Shown in pieces: positions 20,389-38,808 of a stretch of DNA of 64,000 nucleotides. Numbering within the stretch: position 1 is the first letter of the stretch; each line of letters begins with the position of its first letter. A model generated the notes under the pieces. The model searched no databases. It saw only the letters and a list, made by a program, of their open reading frames with translations, and had not been told where the DNA came from. A program made the translations under genes and the position numbers. The DNA comes from a virus (lineage: Duplodnaviria; Caudoviricetes): the IMG/VR virus record IMGVR_UViG_3300042358_000005, positions 1 to 64,000 of that record. One strand, written 5' to 3'.

Positions 20389-21555
20389 ATGGCTGATTTT
20401 TCATTAACCACGCTCTTCGTGGTTCCAGTAGGACAAACTGCACTTCCTAGTTCTGGCTCAACACAAAACTTGACAGCAGGACAAGTAGGTATTTTTAAAA
20501 GTAACTATGATTTGGCTACTGCTGTTAACATTGCAGCATCTCCTTATTTCTACGTTGCTCAAGGTAGAACAAACACCTATCTTCAAGGATCTAAAAGATC
20601 TGACAGAATCTCTGGTAAATTAAATGCTGGTTCAGGACAAAATGTAACTGAATGGTATAAAGTATCAGGATGCCCAACAGCTGCTAATCAAATTACTGAT
20701 GTAACTGATTTTACTGTACAATGTGGAGAAGTTATCACGTTAACATTACGTGCTTTCTCTAGCTACATTAGTACATTGTATTTCAATGGTTTCACTCGTT
20801 CGGTAACTATTCAAGCTCCTTGTTGTGATTGTGATGCTAATCCATGTGCTGATGTATCTACATCTACTATCATCGATGAGTTAATCTATCAATTAGAATT
20901 GAAAGCTCCAGGAAACAACCCTGATAACATTTCTTTCTCTACATTCTATACATTTGAAAATGTAGGTGGAACTATCTTACGTATTACTGGAAAACCATTG
21001 ACTGTATATGGACAACCATGTGATATCGCTGCGTTCCCTTTTGAATATGACAGAATGTCTTTCAGAACTTTCGTTTATGCTGGTCCAGCTACTACTGCTG
21101 ACTTTATTGTTGCAGATCGTTGTAACTTTGTTGCTCAACCTGTGATCACTCAACGTGCTTCATATGCTTCAGGACAAACTGCTGAGATTGCTCAATTAGA
21201 GAAAAACTTCTATAGCTACCAAGCTGGTTACTTGAAACACCTTTACAGAATGAACGGTTACAATGAGAACTTTGAGTCTTGGGTATCTGGTGGTGTTACT
21301 TATGATACGTATTATATCAAATTCAATGAATATGATAAATCTGCATATCAATGGGGTGATTATATCATGGAAGATTCTACTGTAATCATTGCTGCACCAA
21401 ACTCTGTAACAAGTGGCATTGCTGCTGCAATTGAAACTGTATTAGAAGCTGCTTTAGGAACTGTATTAGATAACAATGCTTGTATTACAACTACAACTAC
21501 TACATCTAGTGCTCCAGCACCTACTACTACTACAACTTCTACTCAAATTCCTTAA
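20389..21555 (+). CDS. Abundant structural protein (auxiliary capsid-like) with a C-terminal poly-Thr tail
   Basis: High-expression codon bias; followed by a terminator; position in the capsid module. Confidence 0.6.
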   Translation: MADFSLTTLFVVPVGQTALPSSGSTQNLTAGQVGIFKSNYDLATAVNIAASPYFYVAQGRTNTYLQGSKRSDRISGKLNAGSGQNVTEWYKVSGCPTAANQITDVTDFTVQCGEVITLTLRAFSSYISTLYFNGFTRSVTIQAPCCDCDANPCADVSTSTIIDELIYQLELKAPGNNPDNISFSTFYTFENVGGTILRITGKPLTVYGQPCDIAAFPFEYDRMSFRTFVYAGPATTADFIVADRCNFVAQPVITQRASYASGQTAEIAQLEKNFYSYQAGYLKHLYRMNGYNENFESWVSGGVTYDTYYIKFNEYDKSAYQWGDYIMEDSTVIIAAPNSVTSGIAAAIETVLEAALGTVLDNNACITTTTTTSSAPAPTTTTTSTQIP

Positions 21556-21588
21556 GGATAAGCAGAAGTAAAATATTATTAAATAACC

Positions 21589-21636
21589 TATGCCAGGGGA
21601 AAGAGGATACACTCATATTCCTCTGGCATATTTATT
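21589..21636 (+). terminator. Intrinsic terminator
   Basis: TATGCCAGGGGAA...TTCCTCTGGCATA-TTTATT. Confidence 0.65.
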
Positions 21637-21647
21637 ATAAAACAAAC

Positions 21648-22211
21648 ATGGCAAACTTACAATTAGATATATTAGTAGTTCCTACTTATAGTGTACTTAC
21701 AATTGGTGTTGCAGACGCTTCTGTATATCCTACCAATCCTCCAGTGGTCTCAGCACCATCTATTGAGATTGAAATACCAGGATTTGGAACAAAGATATTA
21801 CCTTTCGTTCCTAATGAAATCAATGTATTTACATCATCTAATTTAGGGATAACAGATATTGGTTGCAACCAACCTCTTCCTGATGGAGTGTATAGATTAA
21901 AATATTCTGTAGCTCCTGCATATGCAAACTATGTAGAGAAAACAATATTACGTGTTGAGAGGCTTCAAGAGAAGTTCGACAATGCTTTCCTTCAATTAAA
22001 TATGATGGAGTGTGACAGAGCCCTTAAAACTCAATCTAGCGTAACATTAAATACAATCAACTTCTTTATTCAAGGAGCAATTGCTGCAGCTAACAACTGT
22101 GCAGAATATGAATCAAATACATTATATGCTCAGGCAGATAATATGTTAAACAATTTTCTTAAATCCAACTGTGGTTGTTCAGGTAACAACTACCAATTAA
22201 ACTTTTATTAA
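21648..22211 (+). CDS. Putative structural (tail hub/Ig-like) protein
   Basis: LPDGVYRLKYSV beta-domain motif plus helical C-terminus; position. Confidence 0.5.
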   Translation: MANLQLDILVVPTYSVLTIGVADASVYPTNPPVVSAPSIEIEIPGFGTKILPFVPNEINVFTSSNLGITDIGCNQPLPDGVYRLKYSVAPAYANYVEKTILRVERLQEKFDNAFLQLNMMECDRALKTQSSVTLNTINFFIQGAIAAANNCAEYESNTLYAQADNMLNNFLKSNCGCSGNNYQLNFY

Positions 22212-22213
22212 TT

Positions 22214-22309
22214 ATGGCACAATGTTCAAGCTGTGGAGCTAATGTAGGGTGCGGTTGTCAATTGACAAACGGAGTGTGTGCAGCATGTGCTGCTAAAGTG
22301 AATAAATAA
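22214..22309 (+). CDS. 31-aa Cys-rich microprotein (MAQCSSCGANVGCGCQLTNGVCAACAAKVNK), absent from the ORF track
   Basis: Manual translation; fills the gap between two genes; 6 Cys as CxxC, CxC, CxxC. Confidence 0.7.
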   Translation: MAQCSSCGANVGCGCQLTNGVCAACAAKVNK

Positions 22310-22322
22310 ATAAATTGATATC

Positions 22323-23597
22323 ATGTTATCACCAAGACTAACGAATTGCCCAGAATGTTCTAACATTCCTGATTTACTTAAAAAAATAAATTGCAAGTTA
22401 GCAGAGCTTGGTAATAGTTTGTACAACAATGTTTCATACATGTTGAATCAACCTATACCTGCTGGTGATATGCTTCAATTGATAGCATATAGAAGGATAC
22501 TTACTCACAAGTATTGTAATCCTAATTATGTGCATGAGTACTCTGTAGCTATGATAGCTAGCAGAGTTATACGTATTACAGCAGGTTGTGTTAGTAGATG
22601 TAATGAACCAGAACGTTGTTTAGAAGATCCTTGTGAGATTGATATAGTAGCTAATCCTACAACAACAAGTACAACCACTGCAATGATGGGTTGTCAATCA
22701 TTTATATTATATAACACTGCAACTGTTGCAGAATCATTCTTGATTGGTAATTGTGATACAGGAGAACCAGAGACACTAACTTTACAAGGACTGTGTAGTG
22801 TTTGCATAAGCACAATAGTATCTCTTAATGTATCACCAAATATTGTAGTGATAAATACAGATGAGTGTACTACAACGACAACTAGTACCACTCTACCTCC
22901 AACTACTACTACTACAAGCTCTAGTTCTACAAGTACAACAACAAGTTCTAGTACCTCTACAACAACTAGTTCTACAACAACTGCTGCACCTACCACAACA
23001 ACTACTACTACTGCTATGGTTTTACCTTCAGTAACTGTTTGTGGCAGAACAGTAACAATTGAGAATTCAAATCTTACTGTTTTAACTGATGGTACTCCTA
23101 TAGTGTATGCTGCTGATATAACAGAATGGAATAACTATGTTACTAGTAGTATACCTTGTTATACTTATTGGCAATTTGATCCAGCTGAGGCATATAGAGG
23201 TTGTTTATATAACCAAGTAGCCATTAATAATTTAGCTCCTCCAGGATGGAGAGGATTAACAACTCAAGATGTACAATATTTTTATGAGTGTAATCCTTAT
23301 TTACCTGTAGAAAATTTATATGCTGCTTATCCAGGTAATTGGGATCCAACTTTTTGGACAGATCAAAGTAATGCAGGAGAAACTGGAATAAATTTTCAAG
23401 GATATGGATCTCCTCTTTGGAACGCTGGAAATATTTTATGGAATGGTGATGGAAGATTTGAAGCTCATGGGTATTCTCCTTCTACGTTCCCAGCATATGG
23501 ATGTAGTGTTAATACTGCTGTTGGATATGTTAGTTGGGGAGATTATTTAGGATACACTATAAATGATCCTCTATACGCAAGATTTATAAAACTATAA
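22323..23597 (+). CDS. Structural protein: helical N-domain, poly-Thr linkers, Cys module, divergent Fib_succ_major-like C-domain
   Basis: YRGCLYNQVAINNLAPPGWR...ETGINF...YARFIK resembles the Fib_succ_major domain of 32057..37264. Confidence 0.6.
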   Translation: MLSPRLTNCPECSNIPDLLKKINCKLAELGNSLYNNVSYMLNQPIPAGDMLQLIAYRRILTHKYCNPNYVHEYSVAMIASRVIRITAGCVSRCNEPERCLEDPCEIDIVANPTTTSTTTAMMGCQSFILYNTATVAESFLIGNCDTGEPETLTLQGLCSVCISTIVSLNVSPNIVVINTDECTTTTTSTTLPPTTTTTSSSSTSTTTSSSTSTTTSSTTTAAPTTTTTTTAMVLPSVTVCGRTVTIENSNLTVLTDGTPIVYAADITEWNNYVTSSIPCYTYWQFDPAEAYRGCLYNQVAINNLAPPGWRGLTTQDVQYFYECNPYLPVENLYAAYPGNWDPTFWTDQSNAGETGINFQGYGSPLWNAGNILWNGDGRFEAHGYSPSTFPAYGCSVNTAVGYVSWGDYLGYTINDPLYARFIKL

Positions 23598-23626
23598 TAT
23601 ATTAAACCTTTTAAAAAATAAATAAT

Positions 23627-24733
23627 ATGTCCAATTGCTCAAATTGTTATAACGGATGTACAGAGATTATCTCTGACAGATGTGTTAAATATACAGGAAT
23701 AGATGTTCCTGTCCTAGGAATCCAAACAGGTGATTCATTATCTTTTGTAGAACAAGCTCTTATTACATTTCTTGTATCAACATTGGATGGTACAGGAATT
23801 AAAATAGATCTTACTGGTATAAATGTATGTGCTCTTGTGCAGAAATATCTTCCTACTTGTGGGGATCTTTCTATTGTAGATATATCAAAAGCTCTTATAC
23901 AAGCTGCTTGTGATCTTCAAGAACAAGTTGATGCTATTGTAGCAGAACTTGCTATATTAAATGCTGATTATACAATTGGATGTTTAACAGGTGTTACAGC
24001 ATCTTCAGATACACATGCTATAGTACAAGCTGTTATAAATAAAGTTTGTGCATTAGAAGTTGATTTAATTGCTCTTGCTCTTGATCTTAGTACAAACTAT
24101 GTTACATATCTTGAACTTCCTACATTGATCCAAGCATACTTAGATGCTTCGTCAAGTGGATTAATTAGCAATAAGATGATTCCATATTCTGTACTTCCTT
24201 ATTTTGGACCTATAACATTTTTTAATGCTTCAGGAGCAGGTACAGGTGACTGGAATAGAATATTTTTATGTAATGGAAATAATGGTACTCCTGATTTAAG
24301 AGGTAGAGCTTTAACTGGTGTAATTAATGGTATTCCTGGACCAACTTTAAGTCCTGCTGTAGATCCTGCAGTTAGCACTGCTAATCCAAATTATAGTCTT
24401 TATGATAATGCTGGTGCAAATCAAATTTCATTATTAGATACACAGATTCCTTTACATACACATGCTAATACAGTATTGTCTACAGTTGATGAACATGGTG
24501 GACATGTTCATAATATTCAATATGGATTAGGTGGTTCTGGAACTTTATATCCTGAAACTCCATACATAAGTGATGTTATTGGTGGTACGGGAGGAGCAAC
24601 AACAGTTACTGTTACAGGAATAACAGTTGCCACTGCAATAACTAATGCAGCTGGACCAATAGGTGGAGGACTTCCTCATGCAAATATACAACCAGTAACA
24701 GCTTGTTACTATATTCAATATAGACCAGTTTAA
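23627..24733 (+). CDS. Tail fibre protein with collar-like domain
   Basis: FLCNGNNGTPDLRGR collar motif; IPLHTH and HANIQP...YIQY C-terminus. Confidence 0.75.
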   Translation: MSNCSNCYNGCTEIISDRCVKYTGIDVPVLGIQTGDSLSFVEQALITFLVSTLDGTGIKIDLTGINVCALVQKYLPTCGDLSIVDISKALIQAACDLQEQVDAIVAELAILNADYTIGCLTGVTASSDTHAIVQAVINKVCALEVDLIALALDLSTNYVTYLELPTLIQAYLDASSSGLISNKMIPYSVLPYFGPITFFNASGAGTGDWNRIFLCNGNNGTPDLRGRALTGVINGIPGPTLSPAVDPAVSTANPNYSLYDNAGANQISLLDTQIPLHTHANTVLSTVDEHGGHVHNIQYGLGGSGTLYPETPYISDVIGGTGGATTVTVTGITVATAITNAAGPIGGGLPHANIQPVTACYYIQYRPV

Positions 24734-24746
24734 TAAAATCAATAAG

Positions 24747-26954
24747 ATGGCATATCCTTTTTTACCAGTAAATCCTAGCTGCTCAAATGTAGTTATAAAT
24801 GATCCATGTGGATGTAGTTCTGTTATTTCCAATAGTGGTTGTAATAATAACAATCCATGTTCAACATATTTAACTGCTTCTAGTACTATTGTATATGATG
24901 GTCTTGCATTATCATGTATAGTAGCTGAGCCATGTGATACACTTAATGTAATCTTACAAAAGATTGATGAGATCATATGTAATCTATTAACACAGATTAA
25001 TACATTAACTATTCAGGTTAATAATATCACTACACAGATAATAACTATCAATGGTGATATAATCAATATAAATAATCAATTAGATGTATGTTGTAATGTT
25101 ACAACTACCACTACTAGTTCTAGTTCAACTACCACCACTTCAACAACAGTACATCCTTGTGAAAACTTTTCATTAAATAATACAGGATTAACTCCTGTAG
25201 CTATAATCATTACTGATTGTACTACACAAGAACAATCAGCTATTGTATTATTGCCAGGAGATACAAATATTTGTGTTATAACAGATAGTCCTTTAGTTGT
25301 TCCAGGAACAATTATAGTGACACCAAATGGTCCTTGTACTCCTCCAACAACTACTACTACATCATCTTCTACTTCTAGTACAACTTCAACTAGTTCTACC
25401 ACCACTACAACAACAACAGCAATCCCTTGTGAATGTTTGACATTTGAAAATACAGATATAAATCCTCATTTTATTGGATTTAATGATTGTAATGGTGTTT
25501 CTATTGAGACTGAAATTTTTGCAAATGAAACATTATCGTTTTGTGGATGTTGTGGATATGCAGATAGTCCTCTTGTATTTATTACAATTGGAGCTGATTG
25601 TGTTGGTGGGGCTTGTCCTACAACAACAACAACTACAACTACAGTTAATTATGTTTATAGAATTGCACAGTTGTCATGTATAACTTGTGAACCATTAGGT
25701 GATTATTTAAGAAGAAATTCTGGTCCTCTTATTGTTGGTAAATTTTATTATGATGACTTTACTGGACTTGTTTTTGAAATATTAGAGTTTATAGGTACAA
25801 CAACTTTTCCATCTGAATTTAATATAAATATAGAAACCATACAAGATGATTGTGTATCAGTAATTTGTTCTCCTTCTACTACAACTACTACAACAACAGT
25901 ATGTACTAGACCTGAAGGATTAGTAACTGTTAATTATTTTAATACATATACTTATAATGATGTTATAGTGGATTATACTAGCTCATTGTTAGATGCATGT
26001 GCTGCTTGTAATTTTATAAAAAATAATGCATTTGATATACAACAGGAAACTTCTTTATTTGGACAAAGTGGATCATTTAATATAGGACAATATGTTTATG
26101 CTGGATTAGTTACTGATTGTTTACCTTTAGCTAATGGATTCTATATCACAGATCATGAATTTTGTGAAATAGCAGAAATTGTTGATGGTTATATTGTAGG
26201 TATTACAAATTGTCAAATAATTCCTATACCTACTACCACCACCACCACTACAGGTATTCCTTGTGACTGTTTAACTTTTAATAATACAGATGATAAAAAT
26301 CCTCATTCTATAGGATATATTGATTGTAATAATGTTCCTGTTATAGATACAAATATTGAACCTCTTGCACTTGTAAAACTTTGTGGATCTAATGGACTTG
26401 CTAGTAATCCTCTTGTAACAATTACAGTTGGAGATGCTTGTATTGATTCAGTTTGTCCAGAACTAACAACTACCACAACAACTACTGCTTGTTTACAATG
26501 GATTTATGATACTACGCTTATTGAACCACAGTCTACTGTAGTGACTTTAGCATATACTGAATGTATAACTGGTACTCCTATAACAATAACTCAACCAGCT
26601 GGAGATTTTCCACAGCCTTTTGAGTTTTGTGCTGTACCTTATCCTTCTATTGAATTAGGAACATTAATCTCTTCTGGACCTTGTTTACTAACAACTACAA
26701 CTACTACAACAATAGCACCTACAACAACAAGTACTACTACATCTACTCCTTCACCGCAATGTTATAACGTAGCAGTTTCTCCTCCTGTATTTAACCCAGG
26801 AACTTTTCATACAGTAGAATATTTAGATTGTTTAGGAGATCCTCAAACAGTAAATGTTCCTGATGGTGGAACTATGGTTCCAATATGTGCAACTATAATT
26901 GTATCAAACAATAATAATGGTACAACTTATACAACAGGAATTTGTATATTATAA
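24747..26954 (+). CDS. Fibre-like protein: Ile-rich coiled coil plus ~7 Cys-rich modules separated by poly-Thr linkers
   Basis: Visible in the translation. Confidence 0.7.
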   Translation: MAYPFLPVNPSCSNVVINDPCGCSSVISNSGCNNNNPCSTYLTASSTIVYDGLALSCIVAEPCDTLNVILQKIDEIICNLLTQINTLTIQVNNITTQIITINGDIININNQLDVCCNVTTTTTSSSSTTTTSTTVHPCENFSLNNTGLTPVAIIITDCTTQEQSAIVLLPGDTNICVITDSPLVVPGTIIVTPNGPCTPPTTTTTSSSTSSTTSTSSTTTTTTTAIPCECLTFENTDINPHFIGFNDCNGVSIETEIFANETLSFCGCCGYADSPLVFITIGADCVGGACPTTTTTTTTVNYVYRIAQLSCITCEPLGDYLRRNSGPLIVGKFYYDDFTGLVFEILEFIGTTTFPSEFNINIETIQDDCVSVICSPSTTTTTTTVCTRPEGLVTVNYFNTYTYNDVIVDYTSSLLDACAACNFIKNNAFDIQQETSLFGQSGSFNIGQYVYAGLVTDCLPLANGFYITDHEFCEIAEIVDGYIVGITNCQIIPIPTTTTTTTGIPCDCLTFNNTDDKNPHSIGYIDCNNVPVIDTNIEPLALVKLCGSNGLASNPLVTITVGDACIDSVCPELTTTTTTTACLQWIYDTTLIEPQSTVVTLAYTECITGTPITITQPAGDFPQPFEFCAVPYPSIELGTLISSGPCLLTTTTTTTIAPTTTSTTTSTPSPQCYNVAVSPPVFNPGTFHTVEYLDCLGDPQTVNVPDGGTMVPICATIIVSNNNNGTTYTTGICIL

Positions 26955-26969
26955 AATAATAAATAAAAC

Positions 26970-27938
26970 ATGGCTAATTGCTCTAAAATAAATAATACAA
27001 CAATAATAGGAACGAGTGCTGTTACATATGATAGCACTCAACTTCCTTGTACAGATATAAAAACTTGTGATGACTTAAATACGGTTCTTGCTAAGTTAGA
27101 TGCTGTTGTATGTAATGTTACAGCTAGTATAAATACGCTTACAGAAGATATAACAAATATCACTGAGGACATAATGATTATAGGAGAAGACATAATCAAT
27201 ATTAATAATCAACTTGCTATATGTTGTCCAACAACTACAACTACAAGTTCAACTAGTACATCAACTTCTACTACTACATCTACAACTACTATACCACCAA
27301 CTTCAACAACAACAAGTAGTAGTTCTACAAGTTCTACAAGTACATCTACAAGTACATCTACCAGCACATCAACATCAACCTCAACAAGCACATCTACTAG
27401 CACATCTACAACAACCACCACTGCAGCACCTACTACCACAACAACAACAACACTTTTATCTGCTTGTTATATAGTTGAAGGAATATGGGATGTTGATGAT
27501 CCAGCACATCCAGCTGGAGGATATGTAAATTATGTAGATCAATTTGGAAACAATCAATCTTTATCAGGTCTTTGGGTAATTGATAGTATTAATATAATAG
27601 CATCTTCAATAGGTACTCGTGAAGGAGTAACTATTACACCTTCTGACTGCTCAACCACAACTACTACTACTACATCTTTACCTCCTACTCCTTATCGTTG
27701 TATTAGATTAGATGGTTGTGATGGATTTGGGTACAGAGATATAGTTTATAATCCTTTATTTGAAACAGTAGGTCAAGTATTTCAATATTACATATATTCT
27801 GCCCCAAGTACCCTTCATTGTGGTACAGTGATAAATAATAATGTTATGTCAATTGCAGATTCAGCTATTGTAAATATCACTCCAACTACTTGTGGTGAAC
27901 CTACATTATGTGAAGTTCCAAATCCAACTCCACCATGA
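26970..27938 (+). CDS. Fibre-like paralog of 24747..26954 with a ~75-aa Thr/Ser tract
   Basis: Shared N-terminus (CDxLNxxLxKxD...DIININNQLxxCC). Confidence 0.7.
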   Translation: MANCSKINNTTIIGTSAVTYDSTQLPCTDIKTCDDLNTVLAKLDAVVCNVTASINTLTEDITNITEDIMIIGEDIININNQLAICCPTTTTTSSTSTSTSTTTSTTTIPPTSTTTSSSSTSSTSTSTSTSTSTSTSTSTSTSTSTSTTTTTAAPTTTTTTTLLSACYIVEGIWDVDDPAHPAGGYVNYVDQFGNNQSLSGLWVIDSINIIASSIGTREGVTITPSDCSTTTTTTTSLPPTPYRCIRLDGCDGFGYRDIVYNPLFETVGQVFQYYIYSAPSTLHCGTVINNNVMSIADSAIVNITPTTCGEPTLCEVPNPTPP

Positions 27939-27981
27939 TTTATATAAACTAATAATAAACCAATAACTAAAATTTAAACTA

Positions 27982-28467
27982 ATGACAGTATTAATAACAT
28001 TAACAGTTGCTGGGGCTGATTCAGGCCCCTTCAATCTGTACTCAAATGTAAATGGATATACTCCAGCATTTGAAACAGGAGTATCTAAATCAGCATTGCT
28101 TGCAGGATATTCTTCTGCACTAGTGCCTGATTACACAACTATTATAAGAATAGTCTCTACAGGAGATTGTACAAATTATATTGACATAACATTAACATCA
28201 ACAACAACTACTACCACTACAATTGTACCAACTACTACTACTACTACTACTACCAGTTCCCCTGTTATAGCATGTGCACAATATACTGTTGGTACTACTT
28301 CAGGAACAGGACAAACTTTTACTTATACTGATTGTGAGGGGTTACCTCAATCAGATACTGTAGGTGGGGCATCAGGATTTGATTCTCGAACATTTTGTGC
28401 TCAATTAAATTCAGTGATAGGTACAGGAGAAACTACAACAATATATGATGGACCTTGTCTAACTTAA
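27982..28467 (+). CDS. Small two-domain structural protein (GPFN domain, poly-Thr, Cys module)
   Basis: Visible in the translation; N-domain paralogous to the start of 38809..39675. Confidence 0.65.
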   Translation: MTVLITLTVAGADSGPFNLYSNVNGYTPAFETGVSKSALLAGYSSALVPDYTTIIRIVSTGDCTNYIDITLTSTTTTTTTIVPTTTTTTTTSSPVIACAQYTVGTTSGTGQTFTYTDCEGLPQSDTVGGASGFDSRTFCAQLNSVIGTGETTTIYDGPCLT

Positions 28468-28513
28468 TTTAAAAATTAATAAAAAACCTTGTTTTGTTGG
28501 TTTTACAAGGTTT

Positions 28514-28547
28514 CTCCTCAAGACTTTTCTTGGGGAGTTTTTGTTTT
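28514..28547 (+). terminator. Intrinsic terminator
   Basis: CTCCTCAAGA-CTTT-TCTTGGGGAG-TTTTTGTTTT; preceded by a second hairpin AAACCTTGT/ACAAGGTTT. Confidence 0.85.
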
Positions 28548-28624
28548 ATAACCAATTTGATTATAAATAATAACGTTTTTAATTAAAATTATTTGGAATA
28601 TATAAAAACTATTGTTTATCTTTA
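28546..28624 (+). promoter_or_regulatory. Dyad operator plus host-type promoter
   Basis: TTATAACCAATTTGATTATAA - 25 nt - TTTG - 21 nt - TATCTTTA. Confidence 0.6.
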
Positions 28625-28651
28625 CGATATTTTTAACTAATATAGATACAT

Positions 28652-29866
28652 ATGTCTGAAAATCAAAGCTTGTTATATCAATTAGAAGAGTTACTAACGC
28701 AGAAGAAAAGTAAGAAATTCTATGCAGAGAAATTAGGAATAAGTGAATATGAAGTGAATGAGCTCATGAAGGAGCTTAAAGAAAAAGATACAGAACCTGC
28801 AGTAAGAAATTATACAGAAGAACGTAAAGTGAATGTTGAAAGAGGTACAATAGAAAGTACAATCATATCAGACTTTAATCCTAAAGATGATATTGAACTA
28901 GCTAAGCTGCACAAGATAAACTTAGATAAATACATCATTACCAACTACTGGTCTAAGATGTTACCAAGTGGAAACTTCACTTCATCAGTTTTCTCAAAGA
29001 AGAAAGAAGCTAAAGACTACTCTCCTGAAGACTTTGTTAAGTTTTTAGAAAACTACAAACCAAATAATATATCAATTACCAAGGTAGATCGTACTAATAG
29101 TAAAGACTATGTAGATGTAGAAATATCTATATCTGATTTCCATTTAGCTAAGAGATGTGTAGATGGTGATAATAGTCCTGAAGATAGAGCTTTAAGATAT
29201 TTTAATGTGGCTCAGTCTTTGATTAACAAAGTTGAAGCTAATTACAATGTAAACACTGTAGTGTTGCCTATATCGAATGATTTCTTTCATACTGATAACT
29301 ATCAAAACCAAACTACACAAGGTACACCACAAGATACAATAATGGAATATCATTCAGAATATGAATTAGGATTCTCTGTTCTTGTAGATACAATCAATAT
29401 GTTAAGACAACATTCTAGCACTGTGCAGGTGATCCTTGTACAAGGTAATCATGACAGAACTAAGTCTTTTTATTTAGCTCATGCATTAGATGTATACTTC
29501 AGTGATGCACTTGATGTAGAATTTATAAGAGAGCATTCAGTTATTAAAGGAATCACATTGGGTAATACATTCATTGGTTGGCATCATGGTAACTGTAAGT
29601 TAGATGATCTTCCATTATTATTTGCAACACATCCTAAATACAGTCAAGCATTTGGTAATGCTAAATACAGAGAGGTACATACAGGTGATAAACATCACTA
29701 TATGGCTAAAGAGGTTAAGGGAGTAAGAATACAACAAATGCCTAGTTTATCAGGAACTGATAGATGGCACTTAGATAATAACTTCGTACACTCAGTACGA
29801 GCAGCTCTTGCTTTAGTCTATGATCTTAATCTAGGTAAGATAGCAGAGTTTGAAACTCGAATATAA
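28652..29866 (+). CDS. Calcineurin-like metallophosphoesterase with N-terminal HTH
   Basis: SDFH, NDFFH, GNHD, HHG and HTGDKHH motifs; FYAEKLGISEYEV HTH. Confidence 0.85.
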   Translation: MSENQSLLYQLEELLTQKKSKKFYAEKLGISEYEVNELMKELKEKDTEPAVRNYTEERKVNVERGTIESTIISDFNPKDDIELAKLHKINLDKYIITNYWSKMLPSGNFTSSVFSKKKEAKDYSPEDFVKFLENYKPNNISITKVDRTNSKDYVDVEISISDFHLAKRCVDGDNSPEDRALRYFNVAQSLINKVEANYNVNTVVLPISNDFFHTDNYQNQTTQGTPQDTIMEYHSEYELGFSVLVDTINMLRQHSSTVQVILVQGNHDRTKSFYLAHALDVYFSDALDVEFIREHSVIKGITLGNTFIGWHHGNCKLDDLPLLFATHPKYSQAFGNAKYREVHTGDKHHYMAKEVKGVRIQQMPSLSGTDRWHLDNNFVHSVRAALALVYDLNLGKIAEFETRI

Positions 29867-29868
29867 TT

Positions 29869-31073: not shown

Positions 31074-31076
31074 ATT

Positions 31077-32051
31077 ATGTCGTATTATTATAAATATGCT
31101 TTCATTAGCCCAGAACCTGTCTACTCAACTGTTAAAGAAGAATTAAAATCTTATTTTGATACAGGTGCTGTGGATGATCTTTTATTCCCTACTTACTTAG
31201 ATAAAGCTCTAAAGAAGTTAGGTAGAACAACCTATGTAATTACAGATGAAGTTTTATTTATTGAAGACTTCCAAGCTAGACTTCCTGATAACTTTTATGC
31301 TGTTAGAGAAGCATGGATGACTACAGAAGTGGCTAGTTATCCTTATCAATCAGCTAATTCATTTTATTCACAAGCAGCTAGTGCAACCACTATTCAAGTT
31401 GCTCCTTTAACCATTGGAGGAACTCCTTGTAATAATCCTGGATGTCAAACTCCACAATGTGATGGTACATGCATGCCTGTGTTAGTACAAGCTGTGTATA
31501 AGACTAATAATAGTGTAGCAAGAGGATTTACTCATGACTACTTACTTAAGCCTGGAAACATCTCTGCAAGACAAAACTGTGGAGTGGAATATACAAACAA
31601 TTGGGAAATGTATTCTGAAGCTCCTCCTATTCATGAATTCACACCTGGCTCTGCTAGTTATGACTCATTTGATATACGAGATAATAAGTTTGTAACTAAT
31701 TTTAGAAATGGTGTTGTACATTTAATATTCTATGCTACAGAGTATGATGAAATAGGTAATCAATTGATTCCTGACAACTATCGTATTAGAGAATATGTAG
31801 AGGCATTCCTTAAGTTTAAAGTATTTGAAATGCTTACAAATCAAACTAATGATGAAACTTTTAATCAGTTGCAACAGAAGTTAATCTATCACAAACAAGC
31901 ATATGAAGAAGCTTTCATTATGGCTAGTATTGAGATTAAGAAACAAACTCCTTGGGAGAAGCAAAGAAGGATCAAGAATGATCTTAATAGATTTAATATG
32001 TATGAACTTCCTAACCGCACAAATAGAGGTGGTAGAAGACGTAATAACTAA
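31077..32051 (+). CDS. Tail tubular/ring protein (P22 gp4-like position)
   Basis: ARLPDNFY, TNFRNGVVHLIFYA, LIPDN motifs; directly precedes the stabilisation gene. Confidence 0.65.
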   Translation: MSYYYKYAFISPEPVYSTVKEELKSYFDTGAVDDLLFPTYLDKALKKLGRTTYVITDEVLFIEDFQARLPDNFYAVREAWMTTEVASYPYQSANSFYSQAASATTIQVAPLTIGGTPCNNPGCQTPQCDGTCMPVLVQAVYKTNNSVARGFTHDYLLKPGNISARQNCGVEYTNNWEMYSEAPPIHEFTPGSASYDSFDIRDNKFVTNFRNGVVHLIFYATEYDEIGNQLIPDNYRIREYVEAFLKFKVFEMLTNQTNDETFNQLQQKLIYHKQAYEEAFIMASIEIKKQTPWEKQRRIKNDLNRFNMYELPNRTNRGGRRRNN

Positions 32052-32056
32052 TAACT

Positions 32057-35000
32057 ATGGCAGACGAGTTAGATAAAATAAAACAAATACTTGGTGGAGA
32101 TCAAAGTAATATTAAATTAGAGCCTAATTTTGGAGCTATTGGTTTAAATATGGATCAAACTTTGAATCAGATTAAACCTGGTACATTGACCTATGCATTA
32201 AATGCTGCTTTAGAAAACTTTGATGCTAGTTCTGTTAATTATCAGAACGAACAAGGTAATGAATTCTGTTTACAGTTTCCTTCAGGGTATTCTTTGATAG
32301 GAACTTATTTTATTAATGAAAAGAACAAACATATATTCTTTATAGTAAATTCTGATATAGGAATGAGCCAGATTGGATATATGGATAATAATGATTGTAA
32401 TTATGTTACATTAGTAGAATCAGCATGTCTTAACTTTGACATTAATCATCCAATACATAAAGTGGTACATAAGATTACCAATTGTAAAACTGAGATATAT
32501 TGGACAGATGGATACAACTCAAGAAGATATTTAGATATAGAGAACATTCCATATACACTAGCATATGATTCAGATCTATGTGATCCTACATATACAGATC
32601 AATTAGATTGTAATCAATTAAAAATACAACCTAATTTTAATATCCCTGAACTTGAAATAACAAATATTTATAATGGTGGGGATCTTACTTCTGGTACATA
32701 TCAGTTTGCTATACAATATTGTGATGCATCAGGTAATGCTTATACATCATACTACTCTGTTACTAATCCTACACCTATTGCTGACACACAATTAACAACT
32801 GCCATCTTTGATTATAAGGTTGGTAAATCTATTGAAGTGACAGTTAATAACTTAGATATTACAGGATTATATTTATACTATAATATAGCTGTAATCAAAA
32901 CAATAAATAATATCACTAGTATAGAACTAGTAGGTACATATTCAATTGAAAATCAAGTTGACGTAGTAACATATACTGGACAAAATAATACACTGATTAA
33001 TCTAACTGCTTTAGATATATTTGAAAAATATCCATATTATGATATTGCTCAAGATTTGACTACTGCTCAAGATGTAATCATGTGGGACAACCTTACGTCT
33101 ATAGATAGAATAAACTATCAAGAGATAGCTTCTAAAATAGAGTTGTTATGGGAAACATATAGAATCCCTTCTAATGAAAACTATGCTGATGAATTAAATG
33201 CTACAAACCTACGTGGTTATCTACGTGATGAGGTGTATGCATTTGAAATAGTATTCTTATTAAAGAATGGAAAACAAACAGATGGCTTTCATATTCCTGG
33301 AAGAACATTAACATATGATGATTTACAATATCCAGATATCCCTACTACAAATGCTGACTTTATAGGTGAGCCTGATTATGTTGATCCTACATCAGGAGTT
33401 GGATATAGCCCTTATTGGAAAATATATAATACAGCTTCTGTCCTAGGACAAGCTACAGGAAATCCAATTGGTAATGCTACACCACATGAATATGGTGAAT
33501 TTGCTTATTGGGAATCTATAGAAACATATCCTTGTAATATAGATGTATGGGGAGATCTTGCAGGACAACAGATCAGACATCATAAATTTCCTGATGTACT
33601 CGTTAGTCCTATATTTGAAAATCCTATATATGCTTTAACTCCTGGTTTCCAACCAGAGATGCAAAGTGATGCTGTATTCCCATTAGGAGTGAAAGTTGAT
33701 ATATCACAAATTCAATCTTTGATCTCAAACTCTTCTATTGCACAAGATCAGAAAGATAACATTGCTGGATTTAAAATAGTAAGAGGTAATAGAAATACAA
33801 ATAAATCTATTGTAGCTAAAGGGATGCTTCGTAATGTAGCAACTTATCAAAGACAAGAACAAACTCTTTATTATCCAAACTACCCATATAATGATCTTAA
33901 TGAAGATCCATTTTTGAATGCAACAACTAATGCATATGATTCATTAGGACAATCTCAAGTTTGGATAGTTCAATGTAAAGAAACAGGTACATATGAATAT
34001 ACAGATACAGTTACTGGTAAGTTAGTAAGTTGTATTCCTATGAAAGCTGGTGAAAATTATGAATTTTGTTCTTTGACTAGACCAAAATATTTAACTGGTA
34101 AAGCATGTATAGGTCCTGGAAATTATGATGTTATTGTTTTTGATTATAGTATATGTACAGATGCATATTTATTAAGAGCAGATAGTGAATGGACATGTGA
34201 TAATTCTGCATTAACTACAGTAAAATTTGGAACTGTTCCATTTTGTTCATTTGCATGTAATTTATGTTCATTAAATACATGTGGTATTTTTATTGATAAA
34301 ATATCTATAGGTGAATGGCCTTATTATGAAGATGCAGATGGATATGTTGGAAGTGCAGAAGCTGTATGTAGAAGAGAAGAACCATGGCCTCTTCGATTAG
34401 CACTTGGTGAACTTCCTCCATATGATTCAAGATCTTGTATAAATTTTAGTAGAAGATCCCCATTGAATGATACCTGTGGATTAGCTAAATCATTACCAGC
34501 TATTACAAGTGAAAGTTCTAGATATAGACAAGTGTTCAATTCTCCAGATACATCTTTCTCACAACCTTTCTTAGGAGATATTCTTAAATTAGAGAATGTA
34601 ATGTTTGGTGGAGGAAAAGCACATTTTGTTCCAGTGAAAGGAAATGCTAAATATAGACTTCTTTCTAGACAAGCTCAAGAAGATGCATTAGATAGTTCAT
34701 TTGCTCTTGTTGTAGGTTCTGGTGATATGACAGCTGTATTTACAGCTTACCAAGCATATTTAACTATTTATGTAAATGGTATTACAAGAAAGAACTATGC
34801 TCAGTCATTTAACTCTATTGCTAGTTATGACTATTCTGCAGATATAGGTAATAACATTACATCTAATGGTGTAGTTGGTATTAAACAAAGACAATTAGAT
34901 ATTCAAACATATTTAATACCAGGTGTATTAAATGTAGGTGATGATAAAAATATTAATAACTATCAAAGAGAGTCATCTATCTATACAAAGACTATAGATA

Positions 35001-37264
35001 AATATGCTCCTCTTCCATTCCCTAATCAAACAGCATCACTTATTGATTCTAATAATGTGCCATTAATATCAGAAAACTCTAGATTTGTTATTGGTGGTCC
35101 AAACTATTGTACTGCAAGTGTAGCTGATAAGAAAGACAACTATTGTAACATTCCTGAGAAGGAACAAGACATTAGTGTTATTTCATATTATGCATCATTA
35201 AAAAATATATTTTTAAATCAATGGGGCCAAATGTATTCTTACGAGACTGTTGATACAGGATTCCAAAGAATGTTTAATATAAGTTCTTATTCTGATGATG
35301 TAGTATTTGGTGGAGATACATTTATAAATAAGTTTGCATATAAGACAAAACTTCCTTTCTTCTTGGATAATAGAGTGAACGGATTAGATGATAGTGATAT
35401 ATTCTATGATGAGATTGGCAATGTAGCCTATCCAAAATTCTGGCACTCTGCTAGATCTATTCTATATACATATACGAATATGATAAACATTATATCAATT
35501 AAAGCTCACAACTTTGATTGCTACAATGATCCTGCAGCTATTCCAAAAAGTAGTGATCCTGCAGCTGGTACATATAGAACTTTCTATGATGGATTCTTTT
35601 ATTTATTTGCATATGGTGTACCTAACTTCTATTGTGAATCTAATTATAATGTAGATATACGTCAAGCATTTAATGATAGAGAAGGTGATTTCTGGCCACA
35701 TGTATCAACTGGTATTCCAGATGATTGGGTACAAGAAGAGTTTACATCTATTGCATATGATAATACATATCATTACAATGTAACATTCTCTAAACAGAAC
35801 AAAGAGAATTATTTCTCACATTTACCAGCAGACTGGACATCAGATTTATGTTTTACATATTACCCATTTAGAGTGGTGTATTCTGATCCTCAAGTTAACA
35901 ATGCTGATGTAAGAGTTAATAACTGGTTAAGCTATTCTCCATTATCATTATATGACTTTCCACAGAATTATGGAAACCTTGTATCATTAGATGGTATTCA
36001 GAATAAAGCTGTGTTAGCTAGATTTGAGAACAAGTCATTGTTATATAATAAATTATTAACAATGAATACAAGTAATCCTCAAGCAGCTTATTTAGGTAAC
36101 CCTTCTTTATTTGCAGGAGCACCTCCTATTGATTTTGCTGAAACAGATCTTGGATATGTAGGAAGTCAGAATAAGTTTTTATTAAAGATTCCACAAGGAC
36201 AAGTAACAGTAGATGCTAAAAGAGGACAAATCTTTTTACTTACAAATGAAGGAGCTAATGAGATTTCAGGATTTGGATCTGGTGTAAATAGATTTATGAC
36301 AGACCATTTATCTTTTGAGATATCTAGATATTTCCCAACACATCAAGAAACCATAGATGGTAAAACAATTACTATTCCAGGAGTAGATACAGATAATAAT
36401 TATAATGGTATTGGATTACATGGTGTATATGATAGTAAGTTTGAAAGAGTTATAATTACAAAACTAGATTATATTCCTATTGATAAAGATGTGAAGTATG
36501 ATCCTATAACTAAAGAGTTCTATGTTGAAAAAGTTGTGTATGTTGTAATTCCTACAACAACAAGTACAACAACTATTTATACACCTACAACAAGCACTAC
36601 GTCTAGTTCAACTAGTTCTACTACTACATCAACATCTACCTCTACTAGTACAACAACTAGTACTACAACACTATATCCATTTCCATTAGTTACAATTTGT
36701 GATCAAACTTGGATAGCAAAAAATCTAGATGTTACTCATTATAGAAATGGGGATGTTATTCCACAAGCAACAACACAATCGCAAATGCTTGCATACGGAT
36801 TTTCACAAATAGGATGTTGGTCTTATGCAGCTTACAATACAGCTAATGGTACCGTTTATGGTAAATTATATAATTGGTATGCAGTGAATGATTCAAGAGG
36901 CTTAGCTCCATTAGGATATCATGTACCTACTATTAATGAATGGACAACATTAATTAATTGTTTAGGAGGTAACTCTGTTGCTGGAGGTAAAATAAAAGAA
37001 GTTGGTACAGCACATTGGACTAGCCCTAATACAGGTGCTACAAATGAATCTGGCTTTACAGCTTTAGGAGCAGGATTAAATCCTAGTTCAGGAACAGTAA
37101 CTTATCCACCTTCAAATATAAATTACTTTACATATTTTTGGACAGCTACATCAGTTAATAGTAGTACTGCTAATAATGTATTTTTTAGATTTAGCGATGG
37201 TACAGCAAATCCAACATCTGGTGAAAAAACAACAGCCTATTCTGTTCGTTTAATAAAAAATTAA
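32057..37264 (+). CDS. Tail stabilisation/muzzle protein, N-terminal part, with appended poly-Thr and Fib_succ_major domain
   Basis: GLNMD..YALNA..NEQGN, IYWTDG, GTYQFAIQY, FGGDTFI, VDAKRGQIF; C-terminal WIAKNLDV..YGKLYNWYAV..GYHVPT..SVRLIK. Confidence 0.75.
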   Translation: MADELDKIKQILGGDQSNIKLEPNFGAIGLNMDQTLNQIKPGTLTYALNAALENFDASSVNYQNEQGNEFCLQFPSGYSLIGTYFINEKNKHIFFIVNSDIGMSQIGYMDNNDCNYVTLVESACLNFDINHPIHKVVHKITNCKTEIYWTDGYNSRRYLDIENIPYTLAYDSDLCDPTYTDQLDCNQLKIQPNFNIPELEITNIYNGGDLTSGTYQFAIQYCDASGNAYTSYYSVTNPTPIADTQLTTAIFDYKVGKSIEVTVNNLDITGLYLYYNIAVIKTINNITSIELVGTYSIENQVDVVTYTGQNNTLINLTALDIFEKYPYYDIAQDLTTAQDVIMWDNLTSIDRINYQEIASKIELLWETYRIPSNENYADELNATNLRGYLRDEVYAFEIVFLLKNGKQTDGFHIPGRTLTYDDLQYPDIPTTNADFIGEPDYVDPTSGVGYSPYWKIYNTASVLGQATGNPIGNATPHEYGEFAYWESIETYPCNIDVWGDLAGQQIRHHKFPDVLVSPIFENPIYALTPGFQPEMQSDAVFPLGVKVDISQIQSLISNSSIAQDQKDNIAGFKIVRGNRNTNKSIVAKGMLRNVATYQRQEQTLYYPNYPYNDLNEDPFLNATTNAYDSLGQSQVWIVQCKETGTYEYTDTVTGKLVSCIPMKAGENYEFCSLTRPKYLTGKACIGPGNYDVIVFDYSICTDAYLLRADSEWTCDNSALTTVKFGTVPFCSFACNLCSLNTCGIFIDKISIGEWPYYEDADGYVGSAEAVCRREEPWPLRLALGELPPYDSRSCINFSRRSPLNDTCGLAKSLPAITSESSRYRQVFNSPDTSFSQPFLGDILKLENVMFGGGKAHFVPVKGNAKYRLLSRQAQEDALDSSFALVVGSGDMTAVFTAYQAYLTIYVNGITRKNYAQSFNSIASYDYSADIGNNITSNGVVGIKQRQLDIQTYLIPGVLNVGDDKNINNYQRESSIYTKTIDKYAPLPFPNQTASLIDSNNVPLISENSRFVIGGPNYCTASVADKKDNYCNIPEKEQDISVISYYASLKNIFLNQWGQMYSYETVDTGFQRMFNISSYSDDVVFGGDTFINKFAYKTKLPFFLDNRVNGLDDSDIFYDEIGNVAYPKFWHSARSILYTYTNMINIISIKAHNFDCYNDPAAIPKSSDPAAGTYRTFYDGFFYLFAYGVPNFYCESNYNVDIRQAFNDREGDFWPHVSTGIPDDWVQEEFTSIAYDNTYHYNVTFSKQNKENYFSHLPADWTSDLCFTYYPFRVVYSDPQVNNADVRVNNWLSYSPLSLYDFPQNYGNLVSLDGIQNKAVLARFENKSLLYNKLLTMNTSNPQAAYLGNPSLFAGAPPIDFAETDLGYVGSQNKFLLKIPQGQVTVDAKRGQIFLLTNEGANEISGFGSGVNRFMTDHLSFEISRYFPTHQETIDGKTITIPGVDTDNNYNGIGLHGVYDSKFERVIITKLDYIPIDKDVKYDPITKEFYVEKVVYVVIPTTTSTTTIYTPTTSTTSSSTSSTTTSTSTSTSTTTSTTTLYPFPLVTICDQTWIAKNLDVTHYRNGDVIPQATTQSQMLAYGFSQIGCWSYAAYNTANGTVYGKLYNWYAVNDSRGLAPLGYHVPTINEWTTLINCLGGNSVAGGKIKEVGTAHWTSPNTGATNESGFTALGAGLNPSSGTVTYPPSNINYFTYFWTATSVNSSTANNVFFRFSDGTANPTSGEKTTAYSVRLIKN

Positions 37265-37268
37265 TATA

Positions 37269-38807
37269 ATGGCTAAGGAAATACAAACACCAGTAGTGTT
37301 ACGAACACAAGTTTATTTAAATGACCCAGACTACTTTTGTAATAAGAGTTGGACTATGTCATATAATTTAAATACTAAGTCATGGATAAGTTATCATAGT
37401 TATATCCCTAATTTCTATATAGGAGAAAACAATTTCTTTTATTCAGGACTTAATGGATGTTGTGATGATGGTGAGAGTGGTGGGTTTCAAGTTATTGCTG
37501 GAGAATTCAATAAAGTGGTACCAACCTCTACATCAACAACAACTTTCTATCCTTCTCCAACTACTACATCTACCACTACAGTGTTAGATTGTATATTAGT
37601 AGGAGCAGCAATTACAACAAGTTGTGAATTAGTAGGTAATGCAATAATCACTGTACCACCTACAACTACTACCACTATATGTCAAAGACCTTCTAATCTA
37701 TTAACTCAATTTATATTTATACAAGGATATACATTAGGAACAGATCCAGAAGTAATATTTATTAGTAGTCTACAAGATGCATGTAATGCATTACCTGCTA
37801 TTGAGTATGTAGGTAGTCCTACTAATACTGACAGTAGTACAGTGAATACATTTAATGGATATGCAAATACTACATCAACAGAATTAGAAATTGGAAACAT
37901 AGTTTATTATGGTGATTCATTAGATTGTACATTTGTTCCTGATGGATGGTATTATGCTTATTCTCCTTTGTTAGATTTTATTTATCAGATTGTAGGAGGA
38001 GTGGTTGTAACAATAACAACATGTGATTGTGGAATAACTACATCTACTACTACAACTATGCCTGTAGTATCAGAGTGTTGTGGAATTTTATTAGCATCAA
38101 CTGATGCTATTAATTATTTCAATAAGTTAACAAATGTAATAACTCCATTAAATGTACCAGGATATACAACTTCTTCAGGTATAGCTATGACAACAGATAA
38201 GTTATGGTCTATTAATGCTGATATAAAAGAATGGAACATATTATTAAATCCATTTTTAGCAACGTTTAATAGAACAATAACTCTTCCTGGAGGATTTACT
38301 ACATCATCTGGAATTGTTGCTTTAAATAATACAGCATTGATTGCTATAGATAGTTCAGCATCTCCACAAGAAGTTGTAGAATTAAACATTACTACATTGA
38401 GTGCATCTGCTGCTATTCAGTTTACGTTACAAGCTAATAGACAAGCTTCTGGTAATCCATTATATATACAGACAGGTCAGATAATTATAATCAATCAAGA
38501 TGTCATATCTTCTGATTATTATATTACACAATACAATTATTCTACAGGAACACTTGAACTTGATATTAATATTGGAACTGTAGAAGGTGTTACATTATTT
38601 GAATGTGATTGTGATATTTATGTTACAGATGCATCTGGACACATGTATGTAATAATTAAAGCATTCCCTTATGTATTATTATATCTAGGATATAGTATTA
38701 ATTTAACATCTATAAGTTCTGCTACTCAAATTGGAAGCTGTATAGTTAGTTCTATCACTGGAAATAGTAATGTACCAACAACAACAACCACTACAACTAT
38801 CCCTTAA
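37269..38807 (+). CDS. Tail stabilisation protein middle fragment plus Cys/Thr modules and a beta-propeller-like C-domain
   Basis: N-terminal FCNKSWTMSY..WISYHSYIPNFY continues the stabilisation-protein pattern. Confidence 0.6.
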   Translation: MAKEIQTPVVLRTQVYLNDPDYFCNKSWTMSYNLNTKSWISYHSYIPNFYIGENNFFYSGLNGCCDDGESGGFQVIAGEFNKVVPTSTSTTTFYPSPTTTSTTTVLDCILVGAAITTSCELVGNAIITVPPTTTTTICQRPSNLLTQFIFIQGYTLGTDPEVIFISSLQDACNALPAIEYVGSPTNTDSSTVNTFNGYANTTSTELEIGNIVYYGDSLDCTFVPDGWYYAYSPLLDFIYQIVGGVVVTITTCDCGITTSTTTTMPVVSECCGILLASTDAINYFNKLTNVITPLNVPGYTTSSGIAMTTDKLWSINADIKEWNILLNPFLATFNRTITLPGGFTTSSGIVALNNTALIAIDSSASPQEVVELNITTLSASAAIQFTLQANRQASGNPLYIQTGQIIIINQDVISSDYYITQYNYSTGTLELDINIGTVEGVTLFECDCDIYVTDASGHMYVIIKAFPYVLLYLGYSINLTSISSATQIGSCIVSSITGNSNVPTTTTTTTIP

Positions 38808-38808
38808 C

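Follow-up and report, generated by a model that had tools for sequence, protein, structure and literature searches.

Strings of Cys-rich modules on poly-threonine linkers, and a divided muzzle gene, in an uncultured crAss-like phage

Anchors, linkers and modules at the locus

The window analysed here is the first 64 kb (64,000 nucleotides) of a 118,934-bp IMG/VR record (IMGVR_UViG_3300042358_000005) of an uncultured crAss-like phage, which has a GC content of ~32% and a completeness rated 100% by CheckV. Its plus strand carries a structural block with genes for the terminase (10684), the portal (12713), the major capsid protein (16751) and a 1735-residue homologue of the crassvirus muzzle protein (32057). 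This report concerns seven genes of the block, between 20389 and 38807, whose products contain long runs of threonine (Thr) and serine (Ser). A megablast search with a 24-kb query found no nucleotide match in the GenBank phage collection, where relatives are distant and detectable at the protein level only; the closest cultured ones (25-32% protein identity) are Leptolyngbya phage Lbo-JY46, the Cellulophaga phages phi4:1 and phi17:2, and Flavobacterium phages.

Using the exonuclease gene at 28652, we recovered 397 related loci and kept 80 with 81-92% exonuclease identity, all from IMG/VR metagenome assemblies. Tracts were defined as runs of at least five Thr/Ser residues, and the products of all plus-strand open reading frames (ORFs) of the window and the 80 loci were cut at them. 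Clustering of the resulting 1,660 pieces separated invariant N-terminal anchors from variable cargo modules, and placed the same cargo families on different anchors. Families are numbered F0, F1 and so on, related loci L003, L006 and so on, and genes are named by their first nucleotide. The layout of the region is as follows.

20389-21555, plus strand: F12 protein (aa 1-366, 9 Cys) with a 19-residue Thr/Ser/Pro/Ala tail (nt 21487-21543), ending QIP-stop
22323-23597, plus strand: anchor F8 (aa 1-112, 8 Cys), linker, F7 (120-182), 48-residue linker, F71 (231-424)
23627-24733, plus strand: tail-fibre-family protein F3 (phrog_8763, phrog_8469), without a linker here, C-terminal part variable
24747-26954, plus strand: anchor F0 (aa 1-118; Cys-rich head and long helix 65-116), seven cargo modules and seven linkers, 46 Cys
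26970-27938, plus strand: second F0 anchor (aa 1-87), 74-residue Thr/Ser linker, F48, linker, F28
27982-28467, plus strand: anchor F1 (aa 1-71), 22-residue linker, Module A (F11, aa 94-161)
32057-36553, plus strand: muzzle body F15 (aa 1-1499), crAss_MUZ homologue
36554-37268, plus strand: cassette inside the putative ancestral muzzle gene (39-residue linker, Fib_succ_major at nt 36671-37261, stop, 4-nt spacer)
37269-38807, plus strand: F26 (aa 1-85), F23, F13 (137-256), F18 (264-503), then Thr7-IP-stop
38809-39675, plus strand: last muzzle piece, F17 (288 aa), an F1-like N-terminal domain followed by the match to phrog_15100 positions 1588-1780

Within the window, tracts occur in exactly the seven genes named by the first-pass annotation (20389, 22323, 24747, 26970, 27982, 32057 and 37269), where they amount to 18 merged tracts of 5-74 residues. 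Outside it they are found in genes 71508, 81566, 81775 and 82716, and a 2299-residue ORF at 64603 has four 5-residue Ser-rich runs. The 410-residue product of 82716-83948 combines its one Thr/Ser tract with collagen triple-helix repeats (PF01391, E 6.6e-20) and is probably a further fibre. AlphaFold models place the tracts, with a predicted local distance difference test (pLDDT) score of ~30, between folded domains, in agreement with their earlier assignment to domain boundaries. The mixed ACN codons remarked on in the first pass follow the genome background, with tract frequencies of 0.47 (ACA), 0.41 (ACT) and 0.11 (ACC) versus 0.52, 0.39 and 0.06. Long perfect repeats are absent, the longest being (ACT)7. 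The dispersed microhomology that had been proposed is also present: when linkers are compared in pairs, their longest exact match is 11 nt in the median and never exceeds 19 nt, versus 5 nt for random coding segments. These match lengths are what is expected for the same peptides with resampled codons, and the microhomology, though real, is therefore passive, a by-product of encoding poly-Thr with two common codons.

A tract is often a C-terminal tail and not a spacer only, since 227 of 446 linker-bearing proteins end 1-4 residues past one, usually in IP, LP or I. The F12 family always terminates in such a bare Thr tail; its members, here and in all relatives, are free of cargo modules, and have a mean column identity of 87% over 24 relatives. 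Poly-Thr tracts are absent from phi4:1, and a literature search for poly-threonine or threonine-rich linkers in phage virion proteins found no relevant paper.

The seven linker-bearing proteins contain 1.7-6.3% Cys (2.9-6.3% in the products of 22323, 24747, 26970, 27982 and 37269), compared with 0-0.9% in the terminase, the portal, the major capsid protein and the large proteins encoded downstream. The latter are four very large ORFs at 40359-63999 (1118, 866 and 4328 aa, and an open-ended one of at least 1539 aa), whose products are probably the counterparts of the internal cargo proteins of crassviruses; the three complete ones have 0-0.07% Cys, in contrast to the Cys-rich outer proteins.

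F8 (22323), F0 (24747 and 26970), F1 (27982), F15 and F26 (muzzle) and F12 (20389) are always N-terminal and nearly invariant. The two F0 copies are 47% identical (E 3e-20; HHalign 100%), and the 38809-39675 product begins with ~70 residues homologous to F1 (E 8e-6; HHalign 97%). Profile comparison ruled out a relationship of F1 to Module A, as well as a shared F0 anchor in F3 and F8. F0, F1, F8 and F12 match no solved structure and no Pfam family. The first-pass annotation spoke of capsid and tail anchors. Homology upholds the tail part, placing the muzzle at the tail tip and identifying the tail-fibre family; for the capsid part we found no such match.

Seven cargo modules follow F0 in the 24747 product, in the order F7, F6, F117, F13, F6, F11, F11. 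Five of them belong to the ~55-residue, Cys-containing Module A that had been counted by eye as about five copies in 24747 and one each in 22323 and 27982. Segment clustering returns the same numbers: in 24747, F7 at aa 135-200, F6 at 225-291 and 503-573, and F11 at 581-648 and 668-735; in 22323, F7 at 120-182; in 27982, F11 at 94-161. Module A is here a superfamily of three subfamilies (F7, F6 and F11; HHalign probability 69-90%), joined in HHalign by further families from the relatives, and F11 has four invariant Cys. Module B is F13 and, as had been noticed, occurs in both 24747 (aa 385-495) and 37269 (aa 137-256). The top pairs of a first all-vs-all HHalign comparison (F18-F20, F1-F25, F1-F20 and F6-F18) were set aside as probable artefacts of composite members left unsplit at short linkers.

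Fib_succ_major-like modules had been reported at the ends of both 32057 and 22323. The former is clear, with aa 1545-1734 covering positions 1-187 of PF09603 at 118 bits (cut-off 33.9). The C-terminus of 22323 (F71) reaches 16.9 bits, under that cut-off, over profile positions 18-79 only; its first ~90 residues match our F20 profile (E 2e-11; HHalign 92.7%), and we read this divergent half-module as a partial or diverged Fib_succ_major relative. The only other Pfam match in modules of the window and its relatives was a weak one to Lcl_C in a single relative. Modules A and B have no Pfam match at E≤1, to BACON and Ig domains or otherwise.

A model of 24747 aa 1-291 (36 sequences) consists of the long helix 65-116, linkers of pLDDT ~30 and two small all-β domains, F7 (pLDDT ~73) and F6 (~90). 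In the model of the 37269 product (17 sequences), Module B is an α/β domain (block-mean pLDDT ~65-85) and F18 a six-bladed β-propeller (pLDDT ~90), for which Foldseek returned YWTD, Kelch, BamB and designed six-bladed propellers with E-values of 2e-8 to 9e-6. For Modules A and B, folded only within longer models, the best Foldseek E-value against the PDB was ~0.1, in weak rows resembling cupins or the β-sandwiches of carbohydrate-binding modules. A wide VIA-align search with the 24747 model gave coiled-coil matches to the F0 helix only, and the ESM Atlas gave unnamed viral clusters only, at low recognition scores. PDB sequence and profile searches with the muzzle, F12, F0-F7-F6 and the Fib_succ_major module yielded nothing useful.

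The F11 profile matched only 360 cluster representatives among 1.84 billion proteins; of the best 150 of these 360, 63 have Thr/Ser tracts, and their median Cys content is 4.65%. Some matches are tandem copies without a Thr linker. One of them, the 857-residue P0001 from a public collection, has at least five Module A copies joined directly, indicating that the family occurs outside the linker system too. Two smaller elements were also seen. Mini-modules of ~14 residues with one Cys, flanked by two Thr tracts, occur in L003, L006, L007, L015 and L021, and may be either what is left of deleted modules or functional units of very small size. F8-anchored proteins of L006, L032, L033 and L082 end, after a Thr linker, in a conserved 16-residue peptide (...TIYTHF(D/E)AL) that could be a docking strand or an assembly signal.

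Cargo turnover and junctions among related loci

Linker-free genes keep their length among the relatives; orthologues of 22323 range from 121 to 683 aa, those of 24747 from 172 to 768 aa and muzzles from 1481 to 2030 aa. Anchors are fixed in the table of architectures, and the cargo differs in number, order and family. The 81 loci contain 133 distinct multi-module gene architectures, of which 64 recur in at least two loci and 37 in at least three. Among the 937 locus pairs that fall below 99% DNA identity in three core genes, not one has a common architecture in the region from 21648 to the exonuclease, so module number and order are far from invariant among relatives. L072 and L074 have identical core genes and differ by a single Fib_succ_major module on F8. 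In L017 and L018 (core genes 99.8% identical), the last module of the long F0 protein, F37, is a separate ORF in L018, owing either to a recent fission or to a frameshift or sequencing error near the Thr tract.

Modules do move among anchors, as the first-pass annotation had supposed. F20 is found on F8 (12), F0 (9) and F15 (8), F11 on F0 (25), F1 (19), F15 (11) and F8 (1), and F18 on F8, F15, F26 and F0, with up to 89% amino-acid identity between copies on different anchors. The tail-fibre-family gene takes part as well, 12 relatives adding a linker and F29 to F3. F29 (~50 aa) resembles the C-terminus of the F3 protein itself, and gene 23627 has a variable C-terminal segment (24055-24677) bounded by junctions.

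Breakpoints were at first sought at the ends of protein BLAST segments, which proved too noisy because of weak paralogue matches, and were then taken from DNA. Junctions were defined as ends of all-vs-all blastn segments (≥80% identity, ≥150 nt) without co-linear homology within 15-90 nt. Linker-bearing genes contain 2,998 unique junctions. A Thr-coding tract is at most 6 nt away from 48.7% of them, against 10.6% in the null model (~4.6-fold enrichment), and for 40.5% this is true in both partners. Along the window, homology usually breaks off at the first linker past the anchor (22666-22684, 27229-27244 and 28188-28253) and resumes at the next gene start; window junctions outside tracts are mostly at gene boundaries.

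Individual cases can be followed to the base. L021 and L022 carry the same cassette on F1 and on F0, with 84% nucleotide identity starting at the first linker codon. The F28 module of 26970 has an 80% identical counterpart in L015, attached there to an F1 anchor; the nucleotide identity, of 86%, starts at residue 228, the first of linker 228-236. Between L072 and L074 the left joint falls inside an ACN run and the right joint in the AT-rich spacer before the next ATG, the flanks being 99-100% identical. Gene leaders are in general AT-rich and of low complexity, without a long conserved motif.

The genome encodes a RecA (90241-91014, minus strand, 288.8 bits); no RecT or Erf annealing protein was found in it. 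The earlier expectation that this diversity arises without a diversity-generating retroelement (DGR) holds, as the 118,934-bp genome gave no RVT_1 match to a reverse transcriptase and the control genomes did. Mid-block, directly after the most variable genes, lies a DNA repair exonuclease (28652-29866; phrog_704, E 6.7e-52), which we take to be SbcD/Mre11-like.

The divided muzzle gene

The 32057 product matches crAss_MUZ (PF25731) at 108.1 bits, with a cut-off of 27, and phrog_37948 at E 1.7e-86; when the whole genome was scanned with PF25731, the better of two stretches scored 69.3 bits. The crassvirus muzzle is defined as a single polypeptide, hexameric at the tail tip; in the window, muzzle homology is instead spread over three ORFs (32057, 37269 and 38809), compared with two in L012 and L007. 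In those two loci one ORF aligns end to end with aa 1-1494 of 32057 and then with aa 3-502 of 37269, parts that in the window are separated by the 39-residue linker, the Fib_succ_major module, a stop codon, the 4-nt spacer and the restart ATG at 37269. Downstream, phrog_15100 positions 1540-1587 correspond to F26 of 37269 and positions 1588-1780 to the next ORF, and the phi4:1 homologue, gp042, is a single protein of 2289 aa. Since the L012/L007 ORF spans the first break, phrog_15100 spans 37269 and the next ORF, and the phi4:1 protein is undivided, an ancestral muzzle gene was most likely cut at two points, with a cargo string becoming each time the C-terminal extension of the upstream piece. 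The split form is present in 15 relatives. In-frame stop-codon recoding was rejected as its cause, 32057, 37269 and 38770 being each shifted by +1 frame.

The last of these was listed as an ORF from 38770 that overlaps the end of 37269 (38770-38808). Because relatives have a 288-residue product, the true start of F17 is probably the ATG at 38809, directly after the 37269 stop.

The muzzle body itself is not static. Its C-terminal two-thirds (33950-36550) are linker-free, yet almost no relative has ≥80% nucleotide identity there, and sharp muzzle junctions cluster at 33913-33943 and 34129-34132.

Elsewhere in the window, ARAGORN identified a transfer-messenger RNA (1770-2159, minus strand), an odd tRNA-like gene (1540-1609) with a two-base anticodon call, and a tRNA-Met (18522-18596) between the major capsid protein gene and the next structural gene.

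Interpretation and known systems

We consider it probable that the linker-bearing genes form a combinatorial surface-display system of this crAss-like podophage lineage, a reading that starts from the architecture, conservation pattern, junction positions, muzzle fission and tempo of change described above. The invariant N-terminal anchor of each display protein (the muzzle body and fragments F15/F26/F17, the coiled-coil F0, or the small domains F8 and F1) would dock into the particle. It would be followed by a disordered poly-Thr/Ser string with no cargo at all or with as many as seven or more folded domains, small and for the most part rich in Cys: the 4-Cys all-β Module A, the α/β Module B, the six-bladed propeller, the C-type-lectin-class Fib_succ_major and ~100 rarer families. 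Cassettes would be exchanged with the left joint usually in an (ACN)n tract and the right joint at a stop codon or in an AT-rich spacer before the next start; anchors would stay fixed and cargo would be gained, lost, reordered and moved between anchors. The cargo domains may determine adsorption specificity by binding glycans of the host or of the environment, their Cys pairs presumably forming disulfides after lysis. The Thr strings would give reach, and might be O-glycosylated by the phage's own transferases. Joints would cluster in the strings mainly because in-frame joints are tolerated there, perhaps helped by the 11-19 nt of microhomology and the phage RecA.

The lectin-class and propeller domains at the tail tip, the fast turnover and the Cys enrichment of the outer proteins together point to adhesion or receptor binding by the cargo. 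Fib_succ_major/DUF1566 domains are DGR targets of the C-type-lectin fold, among others in Bacteroides phages, in which they follow host tropism; their cysteines are presumed to form disulfides outside the cell (PMC5758913, PMC8143477). In PhicrAss001 the muzzle sits at the tail tip, where it is proposed to contact the cell, and head fibres dock by N-terminal segments of 38-58 residues (PMC10172136). That the linker proteins are in virions is suggested by analogy with phi4:1, whose annotation cites tandem mass spectrometry evidence for the muzzle homologue and neighbouring proteins. Glycosylation of the linkers is plausible, because the genome encodes at 74708-78121 (minus strand) a 1137-residue protein with a methyltransferase, a Glycos_transf_1 (GT1, 40.5 bits) and a Glyco_transf_9 (GT9, 28.9 bits) domain, and, nearby, a sulfotransferase and an APS kinase; three tiny genes of the genome end in Thr runs. 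A 338-residue protein that has also been called a glycosyltransferase matches no Pfam family. Measured virion glycosylation is reported only for mycobacteriophages (PMC11256854).

Several points weigh against the display reading. Roughly one junction in two lies away from linkers, and the linker-free muzzle (from ~33,950) and the F3 C-terminus (23627) equal the linker genes in variability, which makes the linkers one exchange site among several. BLAST segments may be prone to ending at low-complexity tracts despite the co-linearity filter, and every relative is a metagenome assembly. The bare Thr tail on half of the linker proteins is unexplained by a pure spacer role. F0, F1, F8 and F12 cannot be placed in the particle, only the muzzle and the tail-fibre family being placed by homology. 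Module A lacks a significant structural or Pfam match, which makes an adhesin role for it a guess; binding, presence in virions and glycans are all predictions in this lineage.

The bare tails lend themselves to an alternative that we regard as possible, at rather less than even chances: the Thr tracts may mainly be acceptors of a phage-made, possibly sulfated O-glycan coat that acts, as on glycosylated mycobacteriophages, as a shield or lubricant and not in host specificity, the modules being secondary. Half of the linker proteins, and F12 invariably, have a tract at or near their end, and the GT1+GT9+methyltransferase protein, the sulfotransferase, the APS kinase and the tiny Thr-ending genes would supply such a coat; capsid proteins of phages Che8 and Rita carry glycans (Freeman et al. 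2023, as cited in PMC11256854). A coat leaves unexplained, however, the rapid turnover of folded cargo and the lectin-class and propeller modules at the tail tip, and its glycan is predicted from genes. The two roles, coat and binding display, are compatible with each other.

How the joints come to lie in the tracts is a separate matter. We think it unlikely that the tracts are active recombination sites, a built-in shuffling device in which (ACN)n microhomology directs crossovers. The exact matches of 11-19 nt, the 4.6-fold enrichment of junctions, the end of L072/L074 identity inside an ACN run, the right-hand joints in equally low-complexity AT-rich leaders and the encoded RecA would all fit such a device. 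But the microhomology is what background codon usage predicts, with no sign that nucleotide identity is selected; matches of 11-19 nt are on the short side for exchange of the RecA type; no RecT/Erf annealing protein was found in the genome; and the linker-free regions vary equally fast. Moreover, the same pattern is expected if viable in-frame joints are selected in disordered segments, and ordinary recombination followed by survival of such joints fits at least as well as tract-directed crossover. The first-pass view of the linkers as crossover points is thus upheld as to where junctions lie, in the enrichment and in the base-level cases, and not as to the tracts causing them. The apparent shuffling might also be an artefact of short-read assemblers joining strains or genes at repetitive tracts, the relatives being metagenome contigs and the tracts being of low complexity and shared between genes. 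We give this very little credence. Exact matches between tracts do not exceed 19 nt, which is shorter than the usual assembly k-mers; architectures recur in two, three or more contigs; contigs from different samples agree (L082, L032 and L033 come from three samples); and chimeras are for these reasons unlikely. In addition, no joint interrupts a reading frame, and when near-identical genomes are compared, the linkers have matching lengths in 88 of 92 cases.

Phage host range is known to be driven by the exchange of receptor-binding domains, whose joints have rarely been so sharply defined or so deeply sampled. If the surface-display reading is correct, the hundreds of natural recombinants show which anchors and cargo are compatible and at which positions they join, and could directly guide the design of display or retargeting on crAss-like phages of Bacteroidota. 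They are also a source of many small, unannotated, probably disulfide-stabilised candidate binding domains, and a core tail-tip protein is seen split by insertion of a cargo cassette. With the transferase genes, mucin-like glycosylated phage surfaces become a testable idea outside mycobacteriophages. A bolder idea, which we hold to be improbable, is that poly-Thr is a universal adaptor in several phage lineages, at once a tag glycosylated by a phage-encoded transferase and a standard in-frame DNA joint that, paired with the AT-rich stretch between stop and start, delimits a mobile 'domain cassette'. Binding domains of any kind could then be captured by any anchor, the inside of a muzzle gene included, and the system would be the protein-domain counterpart of the integron for virion surfaces.

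Simple-sequence spacers are familiar from other proteins. Secreted cellulases of bacteria and fungi have Pro/Thr-rich O-glycosylated linkers between their catalytic and binding modules, and glycine-rich motifs in T-even gp38 adhesins separate hypervariable segments that are loops within a single domain. The former are likewise disordered Thr-rich linkers, often glycosylated, and the latter likewise simple-sequence spacers that bound exchangeable binding segments; neither is a multi-anchor virion system. Smug et al. 2023 (PMC10684548) described modular, 'LEGO-like' phage receptor-binding proteins. There, too, a fixed N-terminus carries C-terminal domains swapped between close relatives, mosaicism is recent (fragments of ≥50% identity in otherwise unrelated proteins) and an arms race is the rationale; the proteins described here likewise combine conserved N-terminal anchors with C-terminal domains that are non-homologous in close relatives. 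They differ in having up to seven domains per anchor, at least five anchor types drawing on one cargo pool, homopolymeric Thr strings as joints (the word 'linker' is absent from PMC10684548) and the muzzle itself as an anchor. CrAssphage, with its tandem BACON repeats, and T4, with the Ig-like domains of Hoc (PMC6949934, PMC10385173), also string small, variable, probably carbohydrate-binding or adhesive domains on a virion protein. There one domain type is repeated in one protein, unlike here, where many unrelated, mostly unannotated Cys-rich folds are spaced by poly-Thr.

DGR targets such as the DUF1566/Fib_succ_major proteins of Bacteroides uniformis phages (PMC5758913, PMC8143477) have the same domain class, with conserved Cys, on host-recognition proteins. 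Here there is no reverse transcriptase, and whole domains are exchanged instead of a variable repeat being mutagenised. The O-glycosylated structural proteins of Che8 and Rita resemble the linker proteins in their Ser/Thr-rich C-terminal stretches and in the presence of phage glycosyltransferases (Freeman et al. 2023, as cited in PMC11256854). Their glycans were measured and ours are predicted; host phylum, transferase families and proteins differ, and module strings are not known from those phages.

A structural counterpart is PhicrAss001 (Bayfield et al. 2023, PMC10172136). Its tail-tip muzzle, gp44, is homologous and has variable insertions, disulfides stabilise its tail, and its head fibres gp21 and gp29 dock by their N-termini with the rest flexible, as the display proteins here may do. 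No sequence match to the gp21 and gp29 chains was seen for F0, nor for F1 and F8, for which no separate search was made. Whereas PhicrAss001 has its muzzle in one polypeptide, cargo cassettes divide the muzzle here into two or three ORFs. Phage proteins with strings of BACON or Ig-like domains are known already. Distinct here are the cargo pool common to several anchors, the joints in Thr tracts, the bare Thr tails and the split muzzle; the splitting of the muzzle by a cassette, the bare Thr tails and the six-bladed propeller module are newly described in this report.

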